From NCBI GenBank assembly GCA_041664905.1, contig JBAYJX010000004.1:1-53411 (forward strand): 53,411 bases of DNA, written 5' to 3'. Positions 4,555 through 47,949 of the stretch are shown here, in pieces (within the stretch, counting starts at the first letter, position 1; the number at the start of each line of letters is the position of its first letter). Source of the stretch: an archaeon (GTDB taxonomy: Archaea > Iainarchaeota > Iainarchaeia > Iainarchaeales > JAAZKV01). The notes beneath the pieces were generated by a model, which saw only the letters and a list, made by a program, of their open reading frames with translations, did not search any database and had not been told where the DNA came from. The translations under genes and the position numbers were made by a program.

Positions 4555-4715
4555 ATTCTTTTTCATTGCGCGAAATTTTTTAAAGCCCTTTAGCGAGGGG
4601 GGCTTGAGCCACACAGAAACAAATAATGGGATAAATTAGATGTTTTTTGTTGAATTGAAAGTAATATAAAGCTTTAATGTGAAATTATATTAAAAAAATT
4701 AAAAGGAAAAGGTGT

Positions 4716-6098
4716 GTGTTTTTGGGTATTACTGATTTTTTAGTAGGGTTATCCCAATATCTGCCTGAAATTAAAAAATCTGAAAAAGAAATTCCTTTTA
4801 CTCAAAAAATGATGTGGACTGTGTTCGCATTAGTTGTATTCTTTGTTCTTGCTAATATTAATTTGGTGGGTCTTGATACATTATCAGCGAATGTACAAAA
4901 TATTATGTTCGCACAAACACTAATGGCAAGTGAAGTTGGAACACTTATCACAGCAGGAATTGGGCCAATAGTAATGGCATCAATATTTTTACAATTATTC
5001 CTTGGAGCACAACTACTAAAACTTGATATTCATTCTCCGGAAGGAAGAGCCAAATTTCAATCCTTACAAAAAATACTTGCAGTTGCACTTTGTTTTATTG
5101 AAGGATTCATTTATGTTGGATCGGGTTTGCTTACTCCAATAGGCGGAGCAGGATTAGGAAATCCAATGACCTGGTTACTTACTTTCCAAATTGCACTTGG
5201 GTCATTAATATTATTATACTTAGATGAAATTGTTTCAAAATACGGAATTGGTTCAGGAGTAAGTTTGTTTATTGCTGCAGGAGTATCCGGTTCATTGTTT
5301 TGGCAAGTATTTTTGCCCCCTATTCAATCAATGTTAAATCCTGCACTAGCAACAGGTGGAATTTTGTGGAGAACATTTACAACAGGAGATCCATTACTAT
5401 TACTCCCAATACTTGGTGCAATAATAATATTTTTAGTAGTTGTATTTGCTGAAGGAATGCATGTAAACATTCCAATTACTATGGGATACAAAGGAACAGG
5501 TGGAAGATATCCTGTAAAATTTTTGTATGTAAGTAACATGCCAGTAATACTTGCAATGGCATTATTTATGAATGTTAGATTATATGCATTATTTGTAGCA
5601 AAAATTCCAATAATTGGGCCTGCAATGGATGCTTTGTCTTGGGCCGTACAAATACCAAATATTGGTGGAATGAGTCTTTTCCACGGTTTGTTTATTCAAG
5701 GATTAACATCAACAACCATACTTGCAATTGGACAAGGGATATTATTTTTGATATTATTAACTGTAGCATGCATAGTATTTGGGTGGTTCTGGGTACAAAT
5801 GGGAAACCAAAGCACAGAAGCTGTGGCTGCACAACTTGAAAGAAGCGGAATGCAGATACCTGGATTTAGAAGAGATAAGAGAGTAATAGAAAAAGTACTT
5901 GAAAGATATATTCCTCCAATTACAATTTTAGGATCAATATTTGTTGCATTATTGTCTGGCTTAGGAGATTTTGTTTTAGCCGGAGTAGCAAGTGGGACAG
6001 GAATATTATTAACAGTTGGAATTATTTATAGATTCTACGAAGAAATAGCAAAAACACAACAAGAAGCATTAACAAAAATTCTTGGAAAAATGAGTTAA
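4716..6098 (+). CDS. secY: Preprotein translocase subunit SecY
   Basis: 460-aa polytopic membrane protein immediately after uL15. It carries SecY-like segments (GIGPIVMASIFLQLF, YLDEIVSKYGIGSGVSLFIAAG, IPGFRRDKR). The start is ambiguous: GTG 4716 or TTG 4722. Confidence 0.93.
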   Translation: MFLGITDFLVGLSQYLPEIKKSEKEIPFTQKMMWTVFALVVFFVLANINLVGLDTLSANVQNIMFAQTLMASEVGTLITAGIGPIVMASIFLQLFLGAQLLKLDIHSPEGRAKFQSLQKILAVALCFIEGFIYVGSGLLTPIGGAGLGNPMTWLLTFQIALGSLILLYLDEIVSKYGIGSGVSLFIAAGVSGSLFWQVFLPPIQSMLNPALATGGILWRTFTTGDPLLLLPILGAIIIFLVVVFAEGMHVNIPITMGYKGTGGRYPVKFLYVSNMPVILAMALFMNVRLYALFVAKIPIIGPAMDALSWAVQIPNIGGMSLFHGLFIQGLTSTTILAIGQGILFLILLTVACIVFGWFWVQMGNQSTEAVAAQLERSGMQIPGFRRDKRVIEKVLERYIPPITILGSIFVALLSGLGDFVLAGVASGTGILLTVGIIYRFYEEIAKTQQEALTKILGKMS

Positions 6099-27309: not shown

Positions 27310-27984
27310 ATGATTACAGATGACCGAGTAGAAGCACTCTTAGAGAAATATATTAAAAACAAATCCGTAGTTTCTTTTGGGACGGGCCCCACTAACGAAG
27401 CTTTCTTAAAAAAATTAGCACTATACGTTGAATCAAATGGATTAAATATAAGAGTTGTTCCGACTGCCCACACAATGGGAATACTTTGCTCTCAATTAAA
27501 ATTACCAACTGTTTCATTAAATGATGTTGATATTGATTTAGCATTTGATTTTGTTGACCAAGCAGATGAGGACTTTAATTATATTTCAAACGAAACCACT
27601 TCATTAATTAGAGACAAAATGATTGCACAAGATGCAGCAGAACTAGTTGTTATTTGTGATGAAAAAAACTTTGTTCCTCGATTAAATTGTGGAATGTGCG
27701 TAGAAGTAAGTTCATTTGCAATAAACAAAACCCTATCCCAAGTAATGAATTTAGGCGAAGCCAAACTAAGGAAAATAGGTGACAAACCCGTGATGAGCGA
27801 AACAGGACACTACTTTGTTGACATAAAGTTTGATGAAATATATTCGCTTGAAGACATTGATTACCAAGCAAAACGAATACCAGGAGTACTAGAAACAAGT
27901 TTGTTTATGGGATACGCTGACAGAGTAGTACTACACGGAAGCACTCTTACGGTAAAAAGCAGATTGGGAAACCCTGACTTGTGA
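27310..27984 (+). CDS. rpiA: Ribose-5-phosphate isomerase A-like protein (divergent)
   Basis: Overall RpiA layout: VVSFGTGPTNEAFLKKL (compare GxGTGST), DLAFDFVDQADEDF (compare DGADE) and IPGVLETSLFMGYADRVVL (compare GVVExGLF). Several remembered catalytic positions are substituted. Confidence 0.65.
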   Translation: MITDDRVEALLEKYIKNKSVVSFGTGPTNEAFLKKLALYVESNGLNIRVVPTAHTMGILCSQLKLPTVSLNDVDIDLAFDFVDQADEDFNYISNETTSLIRDKMIAQDAAELVVICDEKNFVPRLNCGMCVEVSSFAINKTLSQVMNLGEAKLRKIGDKPVMSETGHYFVDIKFDEIYSLEDIDYQAKRIPGVLETSLFMGYADRVVLHGSTLTVKSRLGNPDL

Positions 27985-28469
27985 ATGGTGCCCGCATGAA
28001 AAGATTGTTAGTGGCCGTGTCCAAAAAAATTGCAGATGAAGTAGAACATTATTGCCAAAAAAGAAAAGTGGCTATGCGAGTCAAAAACCATACTAATGAG
28101 ATTGTTGGAGGGGTATTGCGCGAAAGAATAAGAAAAAGTAATCTTTCTTCCGCAGAAAAAGAAAAACAAACAGTTGCTCTTGCCCAAAAACTGATGTCAA
28201 GAATAATTCTTGACGAAGCAAGAATAACTAATACTAGAATTGATCCAAAAAGAAGAAAAAAAGCGGAAGAAGTTCTTGGAAGAATTTTTACTTGGCTAAG
28301 AATAACCGAAAAACACGGAACAAATGTTGAAAATCATCCATTCAAAATTGAATTGAACAGACAATTGGCAGAGGTTTTAGGGGTCAGGGACAGTAGAAGA
28401 GTGATTAGGCAATTTAGATGGCTCGCAGAGATTTTGGAAAAACAAGAAAAAGATGCGGCGAAAAAGTGA
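27981..28469 (+). CDS. Hypothetical basic protein
   Basis: 162-aa ORF overlapping the rpiA stop (GTGA). ATG 27996 (MKRLLVAVSKK...) is an alternative start. K/R/E-rich and helical, with no family recognised. Confidence 0.45.
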   Translation: MNGARMKRLLVAVSKKIADEVEHYCQKRKVAMRVKNHTNEIVGGVLRERIRKSNLSSAEKEKQTVALAQKLMSRIILDEARITNTRIDPKRRKKAEEVLGRIFTWLRITEKHGTNVENHPFKIELNRQLAEVLGVRDSRRVIRQFRWLAEILEKQEKDAAKK

Positions 28470-28555: not shown

Positions 28556-28628
28556 GCCACTGTAGATCAGCAGTTAGATCGCCTGACTCATAATCAGGAG
28601 GTCGGCGGTGCGATTCCGCCCAGTGGCA
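28556..28628 (+). tRNA. tRNA with CAU anticodon (elongator Met or Ile2), no intron, unusual T-loop
   Basis: Perfect manual cloverleaf: GCCACTG/CAGTGGC acceptor, GATC-AGCAGTTA-GATC D-arm, CCTGA-CTCATAA-TCAGG anticodon arm, AGGTC variable, GGCGG-TGCGATT-CCGCC T-arm, discriminator A. It lacks the A1-U72/GGG-CCC features of an initiator. Confidence 0.85.
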
Positions 28629-28675
28629 TAAGTTTAAATAATACTTAATTAAATTGTAAATAAGGTGATTGAGAA

Positions 28676-29095
28676 ATGACTGTGGTTGGTTCAACGAAGA
28701 TGTTAAAATTGTTACAAAGAGTCCGAGATAAAATAAAAAGAAAGGAACCAAGTCATTCAAGAGGAAAAGCCGTTGTTTCTGGTTATTTAAATCCAACTTT
28801 AAAAAAAGGTAGTCAAGGAATTTTAATTCGTACGGGAAGAATAGACGATGCTTATGGTTATGTTCGGACGCTTGCAAGCATTTGTAAAGGAAGACCCGCA
28901 ATTAAGACACGGGTTCTTAGAGTTTGGGCAGACCTTGAAAAGAAAGGAGTTAAGGGAGCAATTGAAATTGATGCTATGGAACCAGGGTCCAAGCTGGTGT
29001 CATTTTCACAGATGAGAGAGTGGCTTAATGATGGGTCAGTAGGCAAATCCAGTACTCAGTTAAATAATGATTTAAAAAGAATGACCCGAAAATAA
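28676..29095 (+). CDS. Hypothetical protein (cassette 1)
   Basis: 139-aa ORF. GGTGATTGAGAA precedes the ATG. No recognised family. Confidence 0.5.
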   Translation: MTVVGSTKMLKLLQRVRDKIKRKEPSHSRGKAVVSGYLNPTLKKGSQGILIRTGRIDDAYGYVRTLASICKGRPAIKTRVLRVWADLEKKGVKGAIEIDAMEPGSKLVSFSQMREWLNDGSVGKSSTQLNNDLKRMTRK

Positions 29096-29152
29096 TTGGG
29101 GTATTCTTTAATACTTTTCATAAAAGTGTTCTGCTCTGTTTCTGATACGAGT

Positions 29153-29220
29153 GAGAACAGATGAGTTAGTTTCGCATAGTAGTGCGATTCCGCCCAGCGG
29201 CATCATACTTAGTGTGATTC
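29153..29220 (+). repeat. Composite cassette boundary 1: GAGAACAG, then 31 nt, then GCCCAGCGGCA, then 6 nt, then TTAGTGTGATT. It includes a 21-nt tRNA 3'-end copy at 29182-29202.
   Basis: GTGCGATTCCGCCCAGCGGCA compared with the tRNA GTGCGATTCCGCCCAGTGGCA (28608-28628) shows one T-to-C difference. Confidence 0.8.
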
Positions 29221-29283
29221 TAACAAACTAAATAAATATGAGAAAAAACTAATACTTTTAACAGAGCAAGAACAGGTAAGGGT

Positions 29284-29862
29284 TTGTGGGTGATTAAGAT
29301 GAATTTATTCCAAAACAAAAGAAATTATTTAAACGATTGGTTGAAAAATAACAAATACACAGAAAAAGTATACAAAGAACAAAAAGACGCTTCAATAATA
29401 GAACCCACAGTAAATGAACTAAAGAACGCATTAAAACAATACGCGCCTCAAAGTATTTTAGAAATTGGGTGCGGTTGGGGCAGACTAATGAAACCAATAA
29501 ATAAGGAATTTAATTTAGAGGGGTGCGACATACAAAAAGAATATTTACAGGCCGCAAAAAAAGAAGGACTAAAAGTATATGAACTAGATATTGTAAAATC
29601 CGCCCCTCCCAAGAAATATGACTTAGTTTATTGTTATGGGTTATTTATGTATTTCAATGAGAAACAAATACAACAGGCTTTAGAAAATACAATAAAAATA
29701 ACAAACAAAAAAATAATAATATTTGAATGGGCAGATACGTGCGAAAAAATATTAAAAGCAGTTAATAAAGGACTAATACTAAATAGCAATAAATTAGAAC
29801 TACACATAATCCTAAATAAAGGATTGGAAGAATGGAAAAAAACAAAAAGAAGTTCAATGTAA
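29284..29862 (+). CDS. Class I SAM-dependent methyltransferase (cassette 2)
   Basis: Motif I ILEIGCGWGRLMKPI and post-I acidic residue LEGCDIQ, in a short 192-aa Rossmann-type protein. ATG 29299 is an alternative start. Confidence 0.7.
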   Translation: MWVIKMNLFQNKRNYLNDWLKNNKYTEKVYKEQKDASIIEPTVNELKNALKQYAPQSILEIGCGWGRLMKPINKEFNLEGCDIQKEYLQAAKKEGLKVYELDIVKSAPPKKYDLVYCYGLFMYFNEKQIQQALENTIKITNKKIIIFEWADTCEKILKAVNKGLILNSNKLELHIILNKGLEEWKKTKRSSM

Positions 29863-29887
29863 TAAAAAAAACAATGTTTAAGGGCGA

Positions 29888-29954
29888 GAGAACAGGGTGG
29901 CATCACACCACAAGGCTTTACTTGCCCAGCGGCACTTATCTTTTTAGTGTGATT
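29888..29954 (+). repeat. Composite cassette boundary 2: GAGAACAG, then 28 nt, then GCCCAGCGGCA, then 9 nt, then TTAGTGTGATT
   Basis: It has the same three conserved blocks in the same order and nearly the same spacing as 29153-29220. Confidence 0.75.
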
Positions 29955-30024
29955 TTTTTATGTTTTTTCTAGTTTCAATAGTTTTTTATAAGGTTTGAGA
30001 GAGTATTACTATTAGTGATGTTTT

Positions 30025-30213
30025 ATGGGTCAAACTGTTACTATGGATTTGTTGTATAAAGAAATTCTGTCTCTAAAAAAAGAAGTTGAGACAGTTAAAC
30101 GTGTTCTTATTTCTGATGAAAAGGTTTCGGCTAAAGAGCTTGCTGAAATCAAGTTAATCAAAAAAGAAATGCTTTCTGGAAAAGAAAAATCAATGAAAGA
30201 GGTGTTTGGTTAA
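30025..30213 (+). CDS. Putative antitoxin (cassette 3)
   Basis: 62-aa helical ORF whose stop overlaps the start of the RelE-like ORF by 8 nt, which is type II toxin-antitoxin architecture. No specific family recognised. Confidence 0.5.
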   Translation: MGQTVTMDLLYKEILSLKKEVETVKRVLISDEKVSAKELAEIKLIKKEMLSGKEKSMKEVFG

Positions 30214-30502
30214 TGAAAAGGTGTTGTGTTTGTTTGAAATCAGATTTAGCAACAAAGTCGATAAATCCTTGAAGGATTGTAATGAAAAATTAAAGAGTCG
30301 ATTAAAAGAGCTTTTTTTTAAACTACAAGAAGCGCCAGTCCCAGCAAAAGAATATGATTTAAAAAAAATTAGTGGTGTAGATGACACTTATAGAATAAGG
30401 CTTTCAAGTTACAGAGTAACTTACACAGTGTTTTGGGAAGAAAAAATAATTCGTGTACTGTTTGTTGAATTAAGAGATGGAAGTACATACAAGAATATGT
30501 AA
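30206..30502 (+). CDS. RelE/ParE-superfamily toxin (cassette 3)
   Basis: FEIRFSNKVDKSLKD...LKSRLKELFFKLQEAP...YRIRLSSYRVTYTVFWEEKIIRVLFVELR matches the YRIRxGDYRxIY...I pattern of RelE/StbE-type mRNA interferases. The true start is probably one of the in-frame TTG/GTG codons at 30221-30230. Confidence 0.7.
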   Translation: MVNEKVLCLFEIRFSNKVDKSLKDCNEKLKSRLKELFFKLQEAPVPAKEYDLKKISGVDDTYRIRLSSYRVTYTVFWEEKIIRVLFVELRDGSTYKNM

Positions 30503-30515
30503 CTGCCCTAAGTTG

Positions 30516-30535
30516 GCCCAGTGGTACTTATTTTC
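30516..30535 (+). repeat. Distal degenerate tRNA 3'-end copy (GCCCAGTGGTACTTATTTTC)
   Basis: 10/11 match to the tRNA core. It shares ACTTAT with the sequence after copy 3 (GCCCAGCGGCACTTATC). Confidence 0.55.
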
Positions 30536-30575
30536 AAAACCTCTGTTTTAATTCTTTTTTGTTCATATTATTTGT

Positions 30576-30743
30576 ATGGGTAGGAAAAGAATTACCCCAA
30601 AATCACCGGCTAAACCAAAGAAACCAATTAAGGCTCAAATTGAGTTTTTAAGAAAGTACGTGAATAGTAGGGTGTTTAGGGGAAATGTTCGTGTTAGACA
30701 ACAAAAAGCACTTGGGGCTTGGCCGCCAAAAGAAACCAAATAA
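30576..30743 (+). CDS. Small basic hypothetical protein (55 aa, below the ORF-track cut-off)
   Basis: My own translation gives MGRKRITPKSPAKPKKPIKAQIEFLRKYVNSRVFRGNVRVRQQKALGAWPPKETK. There is no clear SD, so coding status is uncertain. Confidence 0.3.
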   Translation: MGRKRITPKSPAKPKKPIKAQIEFLRKYVNSRVFRGNVRVRQQKALGAWPPKETK

Positions 30744-30817
30744 AGTGGTTTTTATTTTAAATTAATTCAATTTTTAGTTAGTGTCTATTTTTTAATAGTT
30801 TTTCTTTTACTTTTATC

Positions 30818-31420
30818 ATGTCTGATAGCATTTATACAAAAATTAGGTCTGCTATAGGAAAAGTTGCTGATGCAGGAGCGCATTTTAATGCAGCTAGCGC
30901 TGCGGAAGGAATCGGAAAATCTTTAGGTTTAAGCGACACAATGATACAATACACTCACGTTGAATTAAGAAACACTATTTATGAACCAGAGTTTAGAAAA
31001 GTGCCGCTTGATGAAAGAGTTTTGTTTTTACCCCATTGCTCAAGAAATATTAAAGTGTGTAAAGCAACAACTGATGAAGAAGGGATTCACTGCAAACACT
31101 GTGGCGGATGCAACATTGATGAAGCTGTTAAACTTGCTAAAAAAATGGGCTACAAAAAAACGTTTATTGTTCCTGGCGGGAGCATGGTAAAAAAAATACT
31201 AGAAAAACACAAACCAAAAGCCGCAATAGGTGTATCTTGTTTTCATGAAGCAGTAATGGCTTTTGAACTCGCAAAAAGCGCAGGGGTTATCCCTCAATCA
31301 GTTTTATTATTAAAAGATGGGTGCAAGGATACTTTGATTAATTTGCCTCTCTTAGAAGAAAAACTTGCTTTAGTAGATGAAAGAGTTTTAACTAAAGATG
31401 GAAAACTAAAAAACAATTAA
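30818..31420 (+). CDS. Cys-rich DUF116-like protein
   Basis: LPHCSRNIKVCKATTDEEGIHCKHCGGCNIDEAVKLAKKMGYKKTFIVPGGSMV resembles the conserved cysteine core of DUF116 proteins as I remember it. The N-terminal TM segments usual in that family are absent. Confidence 0.5.
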   Translation: MSDSIYTKIRSAIGKVADAGAHFNAASAAEGIGKSLGLSDTMIQYTHVELRNTIYEPEFRKVPLDERVLFLPHCSRNIKVCKATTDEEGIHCKHCGGCNIDEAVKLAKKMGYKKTFIVPGGSMVKKILEKHKPKAAIGVSCFHEAVMAFELAKSAGVIPQSVLLLKDGCKDTLINLPLLEEKLALVDERVLTKDGKLKNN

Positions 31421-46468: not shown

Positions 46469-46561
46469 GCCTCTGTGGCTCAGTTGGTAGAGCGCCGGTT
46501 TTGTACTCCATTATTTGGACAAATTAACCGATGGTCGTGGGTCCGAATCCCACCAGAGGCT
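46469..46561 (+). tRNA. tRNA-Thr(UGU) with a 20-nt intron at 37/38 (46506-46525)
   Basis: Manual cloverleaf: GCCTCTG/CAGAGGC acceptor, GCTC-AGTTGGTA-GAGC D-arm, CCGGT/ACCGA anticodon stem (one C-A mismatch), loop TT-TGT-A[intron]A, TGGTC variable, GTGGG-TCCGAAT-CCCAC T-arm. Intron ACAAA pairs with the anticodon-region TTTGT, which is BHB-like. Confidence 0.8.
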
Positions 46562-46722
46562 TAGTTCCTGCTATTTATACGTGCCTCCAAAAAGAGGCTA
46601 AGTGTAAGTGGCGGATATGGCTTTCAAGGAAAGCTCTACTTCTGCTATTTATTTGTGGTTTACAAAAATTGTAAACTTTGCCCATTAATACCAGTTCAAC
46701 ACAGTGTTGATAGGTTGTAATA

Positions 46723-47949
46723 ATGGAAAATAATTTTGACATACATGATCATGCAAAAACCATTGCGGCGTATTGTGCGAAAATTCCCACTTCAGAGTTT
46801 ATTTGTGAAGCCAGTAAGCCAGTCTTGCTTGACTATCACAGAGCCAACGTTATGGACGGTCTCGCGCTTCCAACCCAACTCAAGCATTTACAGGCGATGT
46901 ATCATTTGGCTAAACAATTGAAAGAGAAACCATTGCTTAGTCTTGAGAAGAAAGACATTGAGGAACTGGTTTTTCAAATTCGAAGTAGCCCAAAGTCATT
47001 ATCTACTAAACAAAAATACCTTATTTGTATGAAAAAGTTCTACAAATGGGCTAATGGGGGTACATATCCCGAAAAAATAGCTTGGGTTCATGTAAAGAAA
47101 AGTATAAGCGACCAAAAACTTCCAGAAGATTTACTTACGCTTGAAGAAGTAAAACGAATGTTAAATGTGTGTGAAAATGATAGAGATCGTTGTTTCATTA
47201 GCTTGCTAAATGAATTGGGTTGCAGAATAGGCGAGATACTCCCAATTAAAGTAAAACATTTTGTTCAAGATGGACAATTAGCCCATATCACCATGCAAAA
47301 ATCCAAAACCAAACCCCGAAGTCTGATAGTGATAGATTCTGTGCAATATGTGGGACGTTGGTTAAATAAACATCCAACTAAAGATCCTGAAGATTCTCTT
47401 TTTGTTGGAATTGGGGCAAAAAATAAAGGTAAACGTTGGAGTTACTCTGCTGCAGTAATGGCATTAAGGAAAATTGCCAAGCGTGCTAACGTAAAGAAAG
47501 GTGTTAACCCACATAATTTTCGACATAGCACAGCAACAAGGTATGCTCAGAGAATGCTCGACGCGCAATTAAACTCTTGGTTTGGTTGGGTGCAAGGTTC
47601 TTCTGTTTCCAGAACGTATGTTCATCTTGCTGGAGGAGACTCAGATAATGTTGCATTAGAAATGAGGGGAATGAAAAAACGCGAAGACAACAAACTAACC
47701 ATGGGCCAATTAGACTGCAAATACTGCGGTACTGTAAATCCGGGCAACCTTGATTTTTGTGAAAAGTGTGGTTCAGCAATAACTGTAATTGGCGGCCTAA
47801 AAAAAGACTCTGAAGCCGAATTATTCAGAAAAGAGATGGAAGCAAGACAAAAAGTACTTGAAGAATATTTAAAATATCAAAATGAACGAATGCAAAAACT
47901 TGAAGATGCACTAAAAGAAACTGAAAAATTAAAAATACAAAATAAATAG
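46723..47949 (+). CDS. Tyrosine recombinase/integrase with a C-terminal zinc-ribbon and coiled-coil extension
   Basis: Catalytic pattern read from the translation: LGCRIGEIL (Arg I), HNFRHSTATRYA (His-x-x-Arg II), GW and SRTYVHL (Tyr). A SAM-like N-terminal domain is present. The extension is CKYCGTVNPGNLDFCEKCGS followed by a K/E-rich helix. Confidence 0.85.
   Translation: MENNFDIHDHAKTIAAYCAKIPTSEFICEASKPVLLDYHRANVMDGLALPTQLKHLQAMYHLAKQLKEKPLLSLEKKDIEELVFQIRSSPKSLSTKQKYLICMKKFYKWANGGTYPEKIAWVHVKKSISDQKLPEDLLTLEEVKRMLNVCENDRDRCFISLLNELGCRIGEILPIKVKHFVQDGQLAHITMQKSKTKPRSLIVIDSVQYVGRWLNKHPTKDPEDSLFVGIGAKNKGKRWSYSAAVMALRKIAKRANVKKGVNPHNFRHSTATRYAQRMLDAQLNSWFGWVQGSSVSRTYVHLAGGDSDNVALEMRGMKKREDNKLTMGQLDCKYCGTVNPGNLDFCEKCGSAITVIGGLKKDSEAELFRKEMEARQKVLEEYLKYQNERMQKLEDALKETEKLKIQNK

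Follow-up and report, generated by a model that had tools for sequence, protein, structure and literature searches.

A methionine tRNA gene, tRNA-Met(CAU), in a 53,411-nt stretch of contig JBAYJX010000004.1 from an archaeon of the Iainarchaeota is followed by three further direct copies of its own 3' end, which divide the DNA downstream into three short, co-oriented units with one cargo module each. The whole stretch is referred to as the window in the following, and all coordinates of the array are those of its plus strand. The units are quite likely mini-elements lacking an integrase, flanked by attachment (att) sites and either comparable to cis-mobilizable elements (CIMEs) or decayed, which were left behind by serial tyrosine-integrase recombination at the att site of the tRNA gene. 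This reading builds on a related archaeon, in which an integrase-bearing element at the same tRNA is bounded by the same 11-nt sequence, GCCCAGTGGCA, which identifies the repeat as the att core of a conventional tRNA-targeting tyrosine integrase.

Repeats of the tRNA-Met 3' end and their boundaries

At its proximal end, the array is bounded by the intact tRNA-Met itself (28556-28628, +), an attL-type site, which was recognised by ARAGORN and by the Rfam model RF00005 (69 bits) and whose last 11 nt make up the att core. Scanning both strands of the window for GCCCAGYGGYA returned four matches, all of them on the plus strand and within 1.9 kb after tRNA-Met, at positions 28618, 29192, 29924 and 30516 and thus with spacings of 574, 732 and 592 nt. 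In copy 2 (29182-29202, +) the similarity reaches from the T-loop to the discriminator, with 20 of 21 nt identical to the tRNA 3' end GTGCGATTCCGCCCAGTGGCA (28608-28628, +). Copy 3 (GCCCAGCGGCA, 29924-29934, +) is followed by CTTATCTTT, which resembles a native tRNA trailer, and copy 4 (GCCCAGTGGTA) together with its trailer CTTATTTT (30516-30534, +) is of the attR type. Directly 3' of both cores 3 and 4 stands ACTTAT, and the commonest tRNA-Met trailer among related loci, CTTATTYTTT (native in L007, L008, L010, L013, L016, L017, L023, and L029), is found after copy 3 (CTTATCTTT) as well as after copy 4 (CTTATTTTC) of the window. With this native-like trailer, copy 4 looks like a displaced tRNA 3' end, which is the classical signature of an attR site.

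Since copies 3 and 4 comprise only 11 nt, a chance recurrence of short repeats in an AT-rich genome had to be considered. However, the pattern did not occur in any of 100 dinucleotide-preserving shuffles of the window, compared to four co-oriented matches within 1.9 kb in the real sequence, and the same arrangement is independently present in the related loci L026, L013, L034, L177, and L166. Chance, which the initial annotation had proposed to check by shuffling, is thereby refuted and retains a vanishingly small probability. Split-tRNA 3' half genes were likewise rejected as an explanation, since the T-stem of copy 2 is missing its 5' strand, and no more than 11 nt make up copy 3 or copy 4.

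Cores 2 and 3 are embedded in composite boundaries. The block GAGAACAG occurs exactly twice in the window, 31 and 28 nt upstream of these cores, where it belongs to the right (P) arms of unit 1 (29153-29160, +) and unit 2 (29888-29895, +); this count of two is unremarkable alone, the unusual part being the fixed position. The motif TTAGTGTGATT is also present in exactly two copies, 6 and 9 nt downstream of the cores, in the left (P') arms of unit 2 (29209-29219, +) and unit 3 (29944-29954, +). Junctions 2 and 3 consequently read GAGAACAG, core, TTAGTGTGATT and are laid out like reconstituted attP sites, as would be expected at the contact of two related elements. The initial annotation had reported the three additional copies in direct orientation, these blocks in fixed order around copies 2 and 3, the shared ACTTAT, and one coding module per interval, namely an unknown 139-aa protein, a 192-aa S-adenosylmethionine (SAM) methyltransferase, and a RelE-type toxin with a putative antitoxin; all of this was confirmed, including the coordinates, identities and spacings of the copies.

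The left-arm motif extends beyond the window. TTAGTGTGATT falls within a pattern positioned 9-12 nt 3' of the core, GTG[CT][AG]A[AT]T, which also follows the core in the integrase-bearing locus L045 and in L025. Altogether, 4 of 32 distinct flanks contain the pattern versus 0.15 expected, and a count of four was reached in none of 2,000 shuffles. Its sequence resembles the T-loop GTGCGATT of tRNA-Met. Judged from these occurrences, the pattern may be a left-arm (P') feature of the integrase element family. Besides, the post-core motif (GTGTGATT or GTGCAATT; window 29182-29220, L045, and L025) nearly repeats the T-loop GTGCGATT in direct orientation ~30 nt further upstream, and the two sequences may constitute a pair of candidate integrase-binding sites.

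The initial annotation had further proposed to fold the boundaries and to search for them in other genomes, and neither a conserved fold nor a recurrence was obtained. Folding six boundaries as single-stranded DNA revealed no shared structure (z from -0.03 to -0.8, and -2.8 for copy 2), no inverse core was found, and a scan of the boundaries for sigma-70 promoters and terminators was uninformative for archaeal DNA. The exact composite boundary GCCCAGYGGCA-N6-9-TTAGTGTGATT had no match in 185,579 species genomes and is therefore not a widespread conserved site. The array itself is contained in four or five metagenome contigs, which are 99.9% identical and come from the four samples ERZ27249449, JGI 3300037810, SRR18595301, and SRR6484324.

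Between copy 4 and the downstream DUF116 gene lies a 55-aa open reading frame (ORF; 30576-30743, +) to which the related loci contain no homologue. Behind this ORF, AGTGGTTTTTATTTT (30746-30760) was spotted by eye as a possible weak and degenerate fifth copy of the tRNA end, whose resemblance to the core is not significant and whose alignment is ambiguous. From its end to DUF116, the distance (65 nt) equals that in empty sites of relatives.

Integrases at the same tRNA and the proposed mechanism

In the uncultured archaeon LFW-252_2 (loci L045/L166), a tyrosine integrase of 410 aa begins 56 nt after the same tRNA-Met. It comprises PF00589 plus SAM-like N-terminal domains and is followed by plasmid- or virus-like genes in an element of 9,554 nt, which ends in an exact second GCCCAGTGGCA, with DUF116 coming next. 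Sequence identity between this element and the units of the window ends at the same left edge. Moreover, homologous integrases are located immediately 3' of tRNA-Met in L042/L021 and L012, and another tyrosine-recombinase ORF starts right after tRNA-Met in L015, so that an integrase ORF directly after this tRNA is known from at least three relatives besides L166. The ORF in L042 (about +56 to +438 after tRNA-Met) shows an apparent frameshift near residue 107, which points to decay of the integrase or to an error in the assembly.

The window contains no recombinase ORF in or beside the array, i.e., between 23.8 and 36 kb, in agreement with the initial annotation. The nearest integrase, and the only candidate trans-acting recombinase within the window, lies 18 kb away at another tRNA. 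There, an intron-bearing tRNA gene of 93 nt (46469-46561, +) is followed after 160 nt by an intact tyrosine integrase of 408 aa (46723-47949, +; PF00589, 7e-23) with a Zn-ribbon-like segment (DUF7577) at its C-terminus, which is a full-length homologue of the L166 integrase (32% identity over 398 aa, 3e-64). The region 46469-47949 probably represents a second element that has integrated. In the rest of the window (remaining 6.9 kb downstream), the 3' end of the intron-bearing tRNA does not recur, and the far end of this element, if any, thus lies outside the window.

Episomal relatives were searched for in viral sequences. Using the L166 integrase, no relatives and hence no episomal attP were recovered. 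The core combined with the P' motif gave two matches in contigs of 55-61% GC without tRNA or integrase, which were attributed to chance, and more than 120 non-specific matches to a 14-nt pattern of the tRNA end were discarded.

According to the favoured mechanism, the 3' end of tRNA-Met would act as attB for a family of plasmid- or virus-like elements with a tyrosine integrase of ~410 aa. In each integration, the element-borne core GCCCAGTGGCA would recombine with the tRNA, whereby the tRNA would be regenerated from the copy of the element and the earlier 3' end would be displaced downstream. Reuse of the site would then generate a head-to-tail array with partial tRNA 3' ends as separators and with the newest unit adjoining the tRNA. 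In each unit, the core would be followed by a short left arm, which in units 2 and 3 includes the TTAGTGTGATT motif, then by a single cargo module and lastly by a right arm that is also short, while copy 4 with CTTATTTT would represent the displaced tRNA 3' end, and indeed the original one if the weak fifth copy is discounted. Unit 3 is likely to have been inserted first, followed by unit 2 and finally unit 1, each at the tRNA.

The position of strand exchange may be narrowed down from the cores themselves. The functional tRNA has T at core position 7, paired with A4, copies 2 and 3 have C at this position, and all repeat pairs across the loci have (A)GTGGCA or TGGCA in common. The divergent position 7 together with the shared TGGCA end suggests that strands were exchanged on the 3' side, near TGGCA, by which the tRNA would keep its own left part. 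The mini-elements were most likely either reduced from larger integrase-bearing elements or carried along by them as hitchhikers, and they would be cis-mobilizable-element-like either way. Their excision or re-integration would be feasible only with a cognate integrase supplied in trans.

The insertion hotspot in related archaea and the possible mobility of its units

One protein-anchored scan, complemented by two in which the 5' half of the tRNA was the query, yielded about 40 loci of relatives. A backbone of RpiA, tRNA-Met, a variable region, DUF116, and HAD is common to ~30 related DPANN (Iainarchaeota-like) loci, and the same tRNA-Met was found in 37 of the loci. In the window, the conserved backbone is represented by the RpiA gene on the proximal side (27310-27984, +; PF06026, 8e-34) and the DUF116 gene on the distal side (30818-31420, +; PF01976, 3e-39). 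The distance from tRNA-Met to DUF116 in relatives ranges from 30 nt to 4.5 kb. Effectively empty sites were detected in L018 (30 nt), L017 and L043 (67-68 nt), L031 (73 nt) and L024 (120 nt), and occupied sites feature inserts of 0.5-4.5 kb with unrelated gene content.

Several of these inserts are closed by repeats of the tRNA end as well. L026 harbors a unit of 491 nt encoding a 137-aa membrane protein (18-nt repeat, P=0.000), and L013 a unit of 499 nt for a secreted protein (13-nt repeat, P=0.005), the distal core of which adjoins the DUF116 promoter, as the tRNA does at empty sites. In L020, an 11-nt repeat closes the unit (P=0.04). L034 combines a gene-less unit of 80 nt with one of 1,232 nt, which encodes a secreted protein of 388 aa and is closed by a 24-nt copy of the tRNA end with three mismatches. 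The 80-nt unit (L034 1416-1500), situated between the tRNA and the second core, contains two hairpins and a stretch similar to the leader that precedes the tRNA in relatives; the unit may represent the remnant of a solo arm or else a tRNA copy that was truncated.

Such a leader-like sequence, possibly a duplicated tRNA with its leader, and the high conservation of tRNA and DUF116 as anchors across relatives are in line with processes that work without a site-specific recombinase, i.e., decayed tandem tRNA duplications or the replacement of islands by homologous recombination anchored in tRNA and DUF116. Nevertheless, all copies are 3' fragments and 5' parts of the tRNA are never kept, nearly all copies start at or near GCCCAG (copy 2, one copy in L034, and L020 differ), and the same 11-nt core bounds an integrase-bearing element. 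Additionally, homologous recombination does not proceed efficiently between repeats as short as 11-18 nt. Duplication or homologous recombination is accordingly regarded as very improbable. Transposition of the IS200/IS605 type or another kind was dismissed because terminal inverted repeats and conserved subterminal hairpins are missing and the integrase element shares the core.

The toxin-antitoxin (TA) cassette of unit 3 recurs in three array contexts beyond the window, namely in L020, L177, and L175. In L020/L172/L173, it is the sole unit between tRNA-Met and DUF116; the L020 cassette is 82% identical to that of the window over 559 nt, and the homology stops 1 nt before copy 4. In L177, the cassette is internal, flanked by TTGCCCAGTGGCATT and with other genes on either side, and it matches L020 with 84% over 629 nt, exactly from core to core. 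Compared with the window, the homology of the L177 cassette likewise ends at copy 4 or just before it. The left arm of the window cassette differs from those of L020/L177 over the first ~40 nt. L175 features a 63%-identical TA cassette of 593 nt at another locus, between copies of a different tRNA-like 3' end, TTCAAATCCCAGTCGGGGCA. Three direct copies of TTCAAATCCCAGTCGGGGCA (3633-4339 of L175, JGI Ga0370355_1004080) bracket a gene-less 100-nt unit with two hairpins plus the TA cassette, and no intact tRNA matching TTCAAATCCCAGTCGGGGCA was found within 8 kb in L175. In a test for horizontal transfer, the 82% nucleotide identity of the TA cassette versus 71-77% in the flanks was suggestive, not decisive. 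The remaining contexts of TA homologues (L174, L176, L179, L180, and L187) showed no flanking repeats or belonged to contigs that were too short.

Several results weigh against att-flanked mini-elements left by serial integration. The 53-kb window holds no integrase specific for tRNA-Met, as the sole one sits at another tRNA and is merely 32% identical to that of L166. Integrase pseudogene fragments were not detected in the mini-cassette arrays by relaxed tblastn with two integrases, and simple decay of large elements therefore lacks direct documentation. The sizes of the units (80-100, 491, 499, 574, 592, 593, 616, 732, and 1,232 nt) gather around that of one gene, whereas random deletions might be expected to scatter them. 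A recognisable distal repeat is missing from about half of the occupied sites (L032, L011, L044, L036, L007, L014, and L035). Finally, all four or five contigs have the array in the same fixed state (99.9% identity), and no cassette polymorphism was found at strain level. As a variant, the mini-elements may move only with an integrase provided in trans, for which the tight single-gene sizes, the two att types, and the slightly higher identity of the cassettes speak.

Taken further, the initial annotation's proposal of an integron-like array makes the units of ~0.5-0.7 kb themselves mobile, in a dedicated system in which they would be captured, excised and shuffled in trans by the integrases of co-resident elements. 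Each unit would circularise with one core of 11-18 nt from the tRNA end, and the tRNA end would be the primary capture site. Such a system overlaps with the favoured mechanism and differs from it in making the mini-unit the unit of mobility. It is backed by at least seven distinct single-gene units, tightly clustered in size, at tRNA-Met across relatives, and by arrays without integrase fragments. The TA cassette occurs in four array contexts with two att cores, always measures ~590-620 nt from core to core, and its nucleotide identity of 82-84% is somewhat above that of flanking host genes (68-77%). Likewise, unit 2 has both arm motifs, which makes junctions 2 and 3 resemble reconstituted attP sites, and identical left arms of 26 nt precede different genes in L026 and L033.

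Nevertheless, neither a circular or empty-site junction nor strain-level polymorphism was found among the four or five contigs with the array, viral scans yielded no episomal form, the boundaries are without conserved structure, and the exact composite boundary is absent from the other genomes searched (185,579). The left arms of the TA cassettes vary between the window and L020/L177 within the first ~40 nt. Vertical descent combined with later insertions at the tRNA also explains the distribution of the TA cassette at the tRNA-Met hotspot, and TA modules are expected to survive deletion preferentially. A dedicated system of this kind is thus possible but doubtful. Equally tentative is the broader idea of a cassette platform in DPANN (Iainarchaeota-like) archaea that is based on ordinary tRNA-targeting integrases. 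Its single-gene cassettes of ~0.5-0.7 kb, equipped with short arm motifs and with 11-18 nt copied from a tRNA 3' end, would leave as circles and would be captured and reshuffled at tRNA ends by integrases delivered in trans from co-resident plasmid- or virus-like elements of ~10 kb.

Of the initial annotation's proposal, the description as discrete, single-function, att-bounded units without their own recombinase stands, and the integron analogy as a distinct system lacks support, the core being the att site of a conventional integrase. The polymorphism with breaks at the repeats that it had asked to look for exists between relatives, as empty sites, other cassettes and the core-to-core match of L020 and L177, and is missing at strain level; closely related strain pairs with different cassette content were not encountered among the loci, only duplicate contigs.

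Some further observations concern the hotspot itself. L026 and L033 share the first 26 nt after the tRNA (CTTAGGTTTAAATAGTTTAAAAGAG, with a TATA-like box inside) and then carry different single genes, the host flanks being only 76% identical. The slot between RpiA and tRNA-Met is also variable. It contains a 162-aa ORF without family in the window (27981-28469), a methyltransferase-like ORF of 228 aa in L007 and nothing in most relatives, with L012, L016, and L025 having been compared too. In L008, a C-terminal remnant of 21 codons from a gene for a PEP-utilising enzyme, which is intact in L007 and L026, lies just upstream of DUF116 (4700-4770) and indicates deletion-driven decay inside the hotspot.

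Known integrative systems and the cargo of the units

The locus matches tRNA-anchored islands built by repeated integration, i.e., accretion of the CIME type. Direct repeats of the tRNA 3' end flank the units, att sites are kept and empty sites are present in relatives; a cognate integrase element at the same core and tRNA was identified in relatives, not in the window. CIME accretion at tRNA genes has been reported for bacteria in the integrative conjugative and integrative mobilizable element (ICE/IME) systems of Streptococcus (PMC5704250). As in CIMEs, units without integration or transfer genes keep attL and attR and are arranged in tandem at a tRNA 3' end with att copies in between, and a related integrase-bearing element uses the same site. 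In contrast to them, the host is an archaeon (DPANN), the units comprise 0.08-1.2 kb with one gene, and a conjugation context is lacking. Decayed CIMEs derived from ICEs or IMEs measure several kb.

Comparable islands were described in Prochlorococcus as tycheposons, where tandem elements are separated only by partial tRNAs, older ones are pushed inward and degenerate remnants remain (10.1101/2020.12.28.424599). Streamlined genomes, anchoring at tRNAs, the displacement of older elements by newer ones and scattered additional partial tRNAs are common to both. Tycheposons are characterised by a particular clade of tyrosine recombinases plus replication modules and have multi-kb cargo, whereas the units described here are single genes without hallmark genes. 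The L166 integrase gave a generic match to PF00589 in addition to the SAM-like N-terminal domains.

Within the archaea, att sites of 8-26 bp and their reuse in tandem are documented for Thaumarchaeota (PMC6563490), the loss of the integrase after integration has been described for archaeal integrated elements (PMC8371274), and partial tRNA genes were explained as attR sites (PMC9897764). Integrated elements with intact integrases of the class II type thus resemble the array in their integration into the 3' part of tRNAs, short att sites (11-21 nt here) and tandem reuse, and integrase-less members among them are explained by integrase loss. They differ in size, with ~9-23 kb reported (PMC6563490, PMC8371274, and PMC9897764), and arrays of single-gene units below 1 kb in archaea are not described in these three publications. 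DPANN archaea are unmentioned in the 2021 review of archaeal tyrosine recombinases (PMC8371274). SSV-type (class I) elements were ruled out, as the integrases of L166 and the window are intact and located wholly downstream of the tRNA, and no ORF abutting a core shows similarity to integrases.

With integrons, the array has in common the ordered and co-oriented cassettes of ~0.5-0.7 kb with a single function, which lack their own recombinase and end in a recombination site, as well as the presumed position of the newest cassette next to the primary site and the variable content between relatives. Unlike in integrons, there is no adjacent intI-type integrase, short direct repeats derived from a tRNA end form the boundaries in place of structured attC palindromes, and the same core bounds a conventional integrative element of 9.5 kb. 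Furthermore, at least the TA cassette may have a promoter of its own; integron cassettes are largely promoterless and rely on the common Pc. The locus is not an integron, because an adjacent integrase and an attC-like fold are missing, a TATA-like promoter region of the TA cassette is likely and the exact composite boundary is absent from the 185,579 species genomes. Tandem tRNA-anchored arrays with partial tRNAs as separators and degenerate units without integrase had already been described. Unusual are the scale, with one-gene units below 1 kb, and the host lineage.

The locus illustrates how a very small archaeal genome acquires and amasses accessory genes. The landing pad is one 3' end, that of tRNA-Met, with a content that differs in almost every relative sampled. 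If the mini-units were mobilised in trans, this would amount to integron-like gene capture in archaea, and a true cassette platform would offer a compact route of accessory-gene exchange for streamlined, host-dependent cells. If the units are scars, serial integration and an extreme degree of reductive decay are cleanly documented by a natural example. With GCCCAGTGGCA as att core and the cognate integrase family now defined, recombination assays and read-level searches for circles become straightforward. Besides, caution is advisable in the annotation of tRNAs, as partial copies can be mis-called.

Concerning the cargo, none of the ORFs in the three units belongs to integration or transfer genes according to Pfam and PHROG scans of all unit ORFs. 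Unit 1 (28629-29202, +) encodes the ORFan of 139 aa (28676-29095, +) with the Shine-Dalgarno sequence AGGTGAT upstream. This protein matched no Pfam or PHROG family and, among 5.8 billion protein clusters, only itself; a single-sequence AlphaFold2 model (mean pLDDT 54) was too poor for a fold search.

Unit 3 shows the layout of a type II TA system (RelE/ParE), in which a gene for a small putative antitoxin of 62 aa (30025-30213, +) overlaps the start of the toxin gene. The predicted toxin (98 aa; 30206-30502, +; start at 30221 according to gene callers) belongs to the ParE/RelE family (PF05016, 6e-7; phrog_1213, RelE-like, 4e-10) and has 22 homologues, one of them from a genome of 'Candidatus Diapherotrites'. 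The 62-aa ORF travels with the toxin in all homologous loci, e.g., L020 (76% on the amino acid level), L175, and L177. The TATA-like region of this cassette is conserved across the window, L020, and L175, and TATA-like sequences are located immediately 3' of several cores. As far as can be told from this conservation, a TATA-like promoter region of its own may be present in the TA cassette at least.

The cargo of unit 2 is a class I SAM-dependent methyltransferase of 192 aa (29284-29862, +; PF13649, 3e-11; PF08242 and PF08241), the start of which was placed at 29299 by gene callers. One homologue with 70% identity resides within a chromosomal glycosylation cluster, and another with 63% at the end of L171 (a Logan contig of SRR27710320, 13,970 nt). 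This contig also encodes many small ORFs and a protein-primed family-B DNA polymerase (PolB) and looks virus- or linear plasmid-like.

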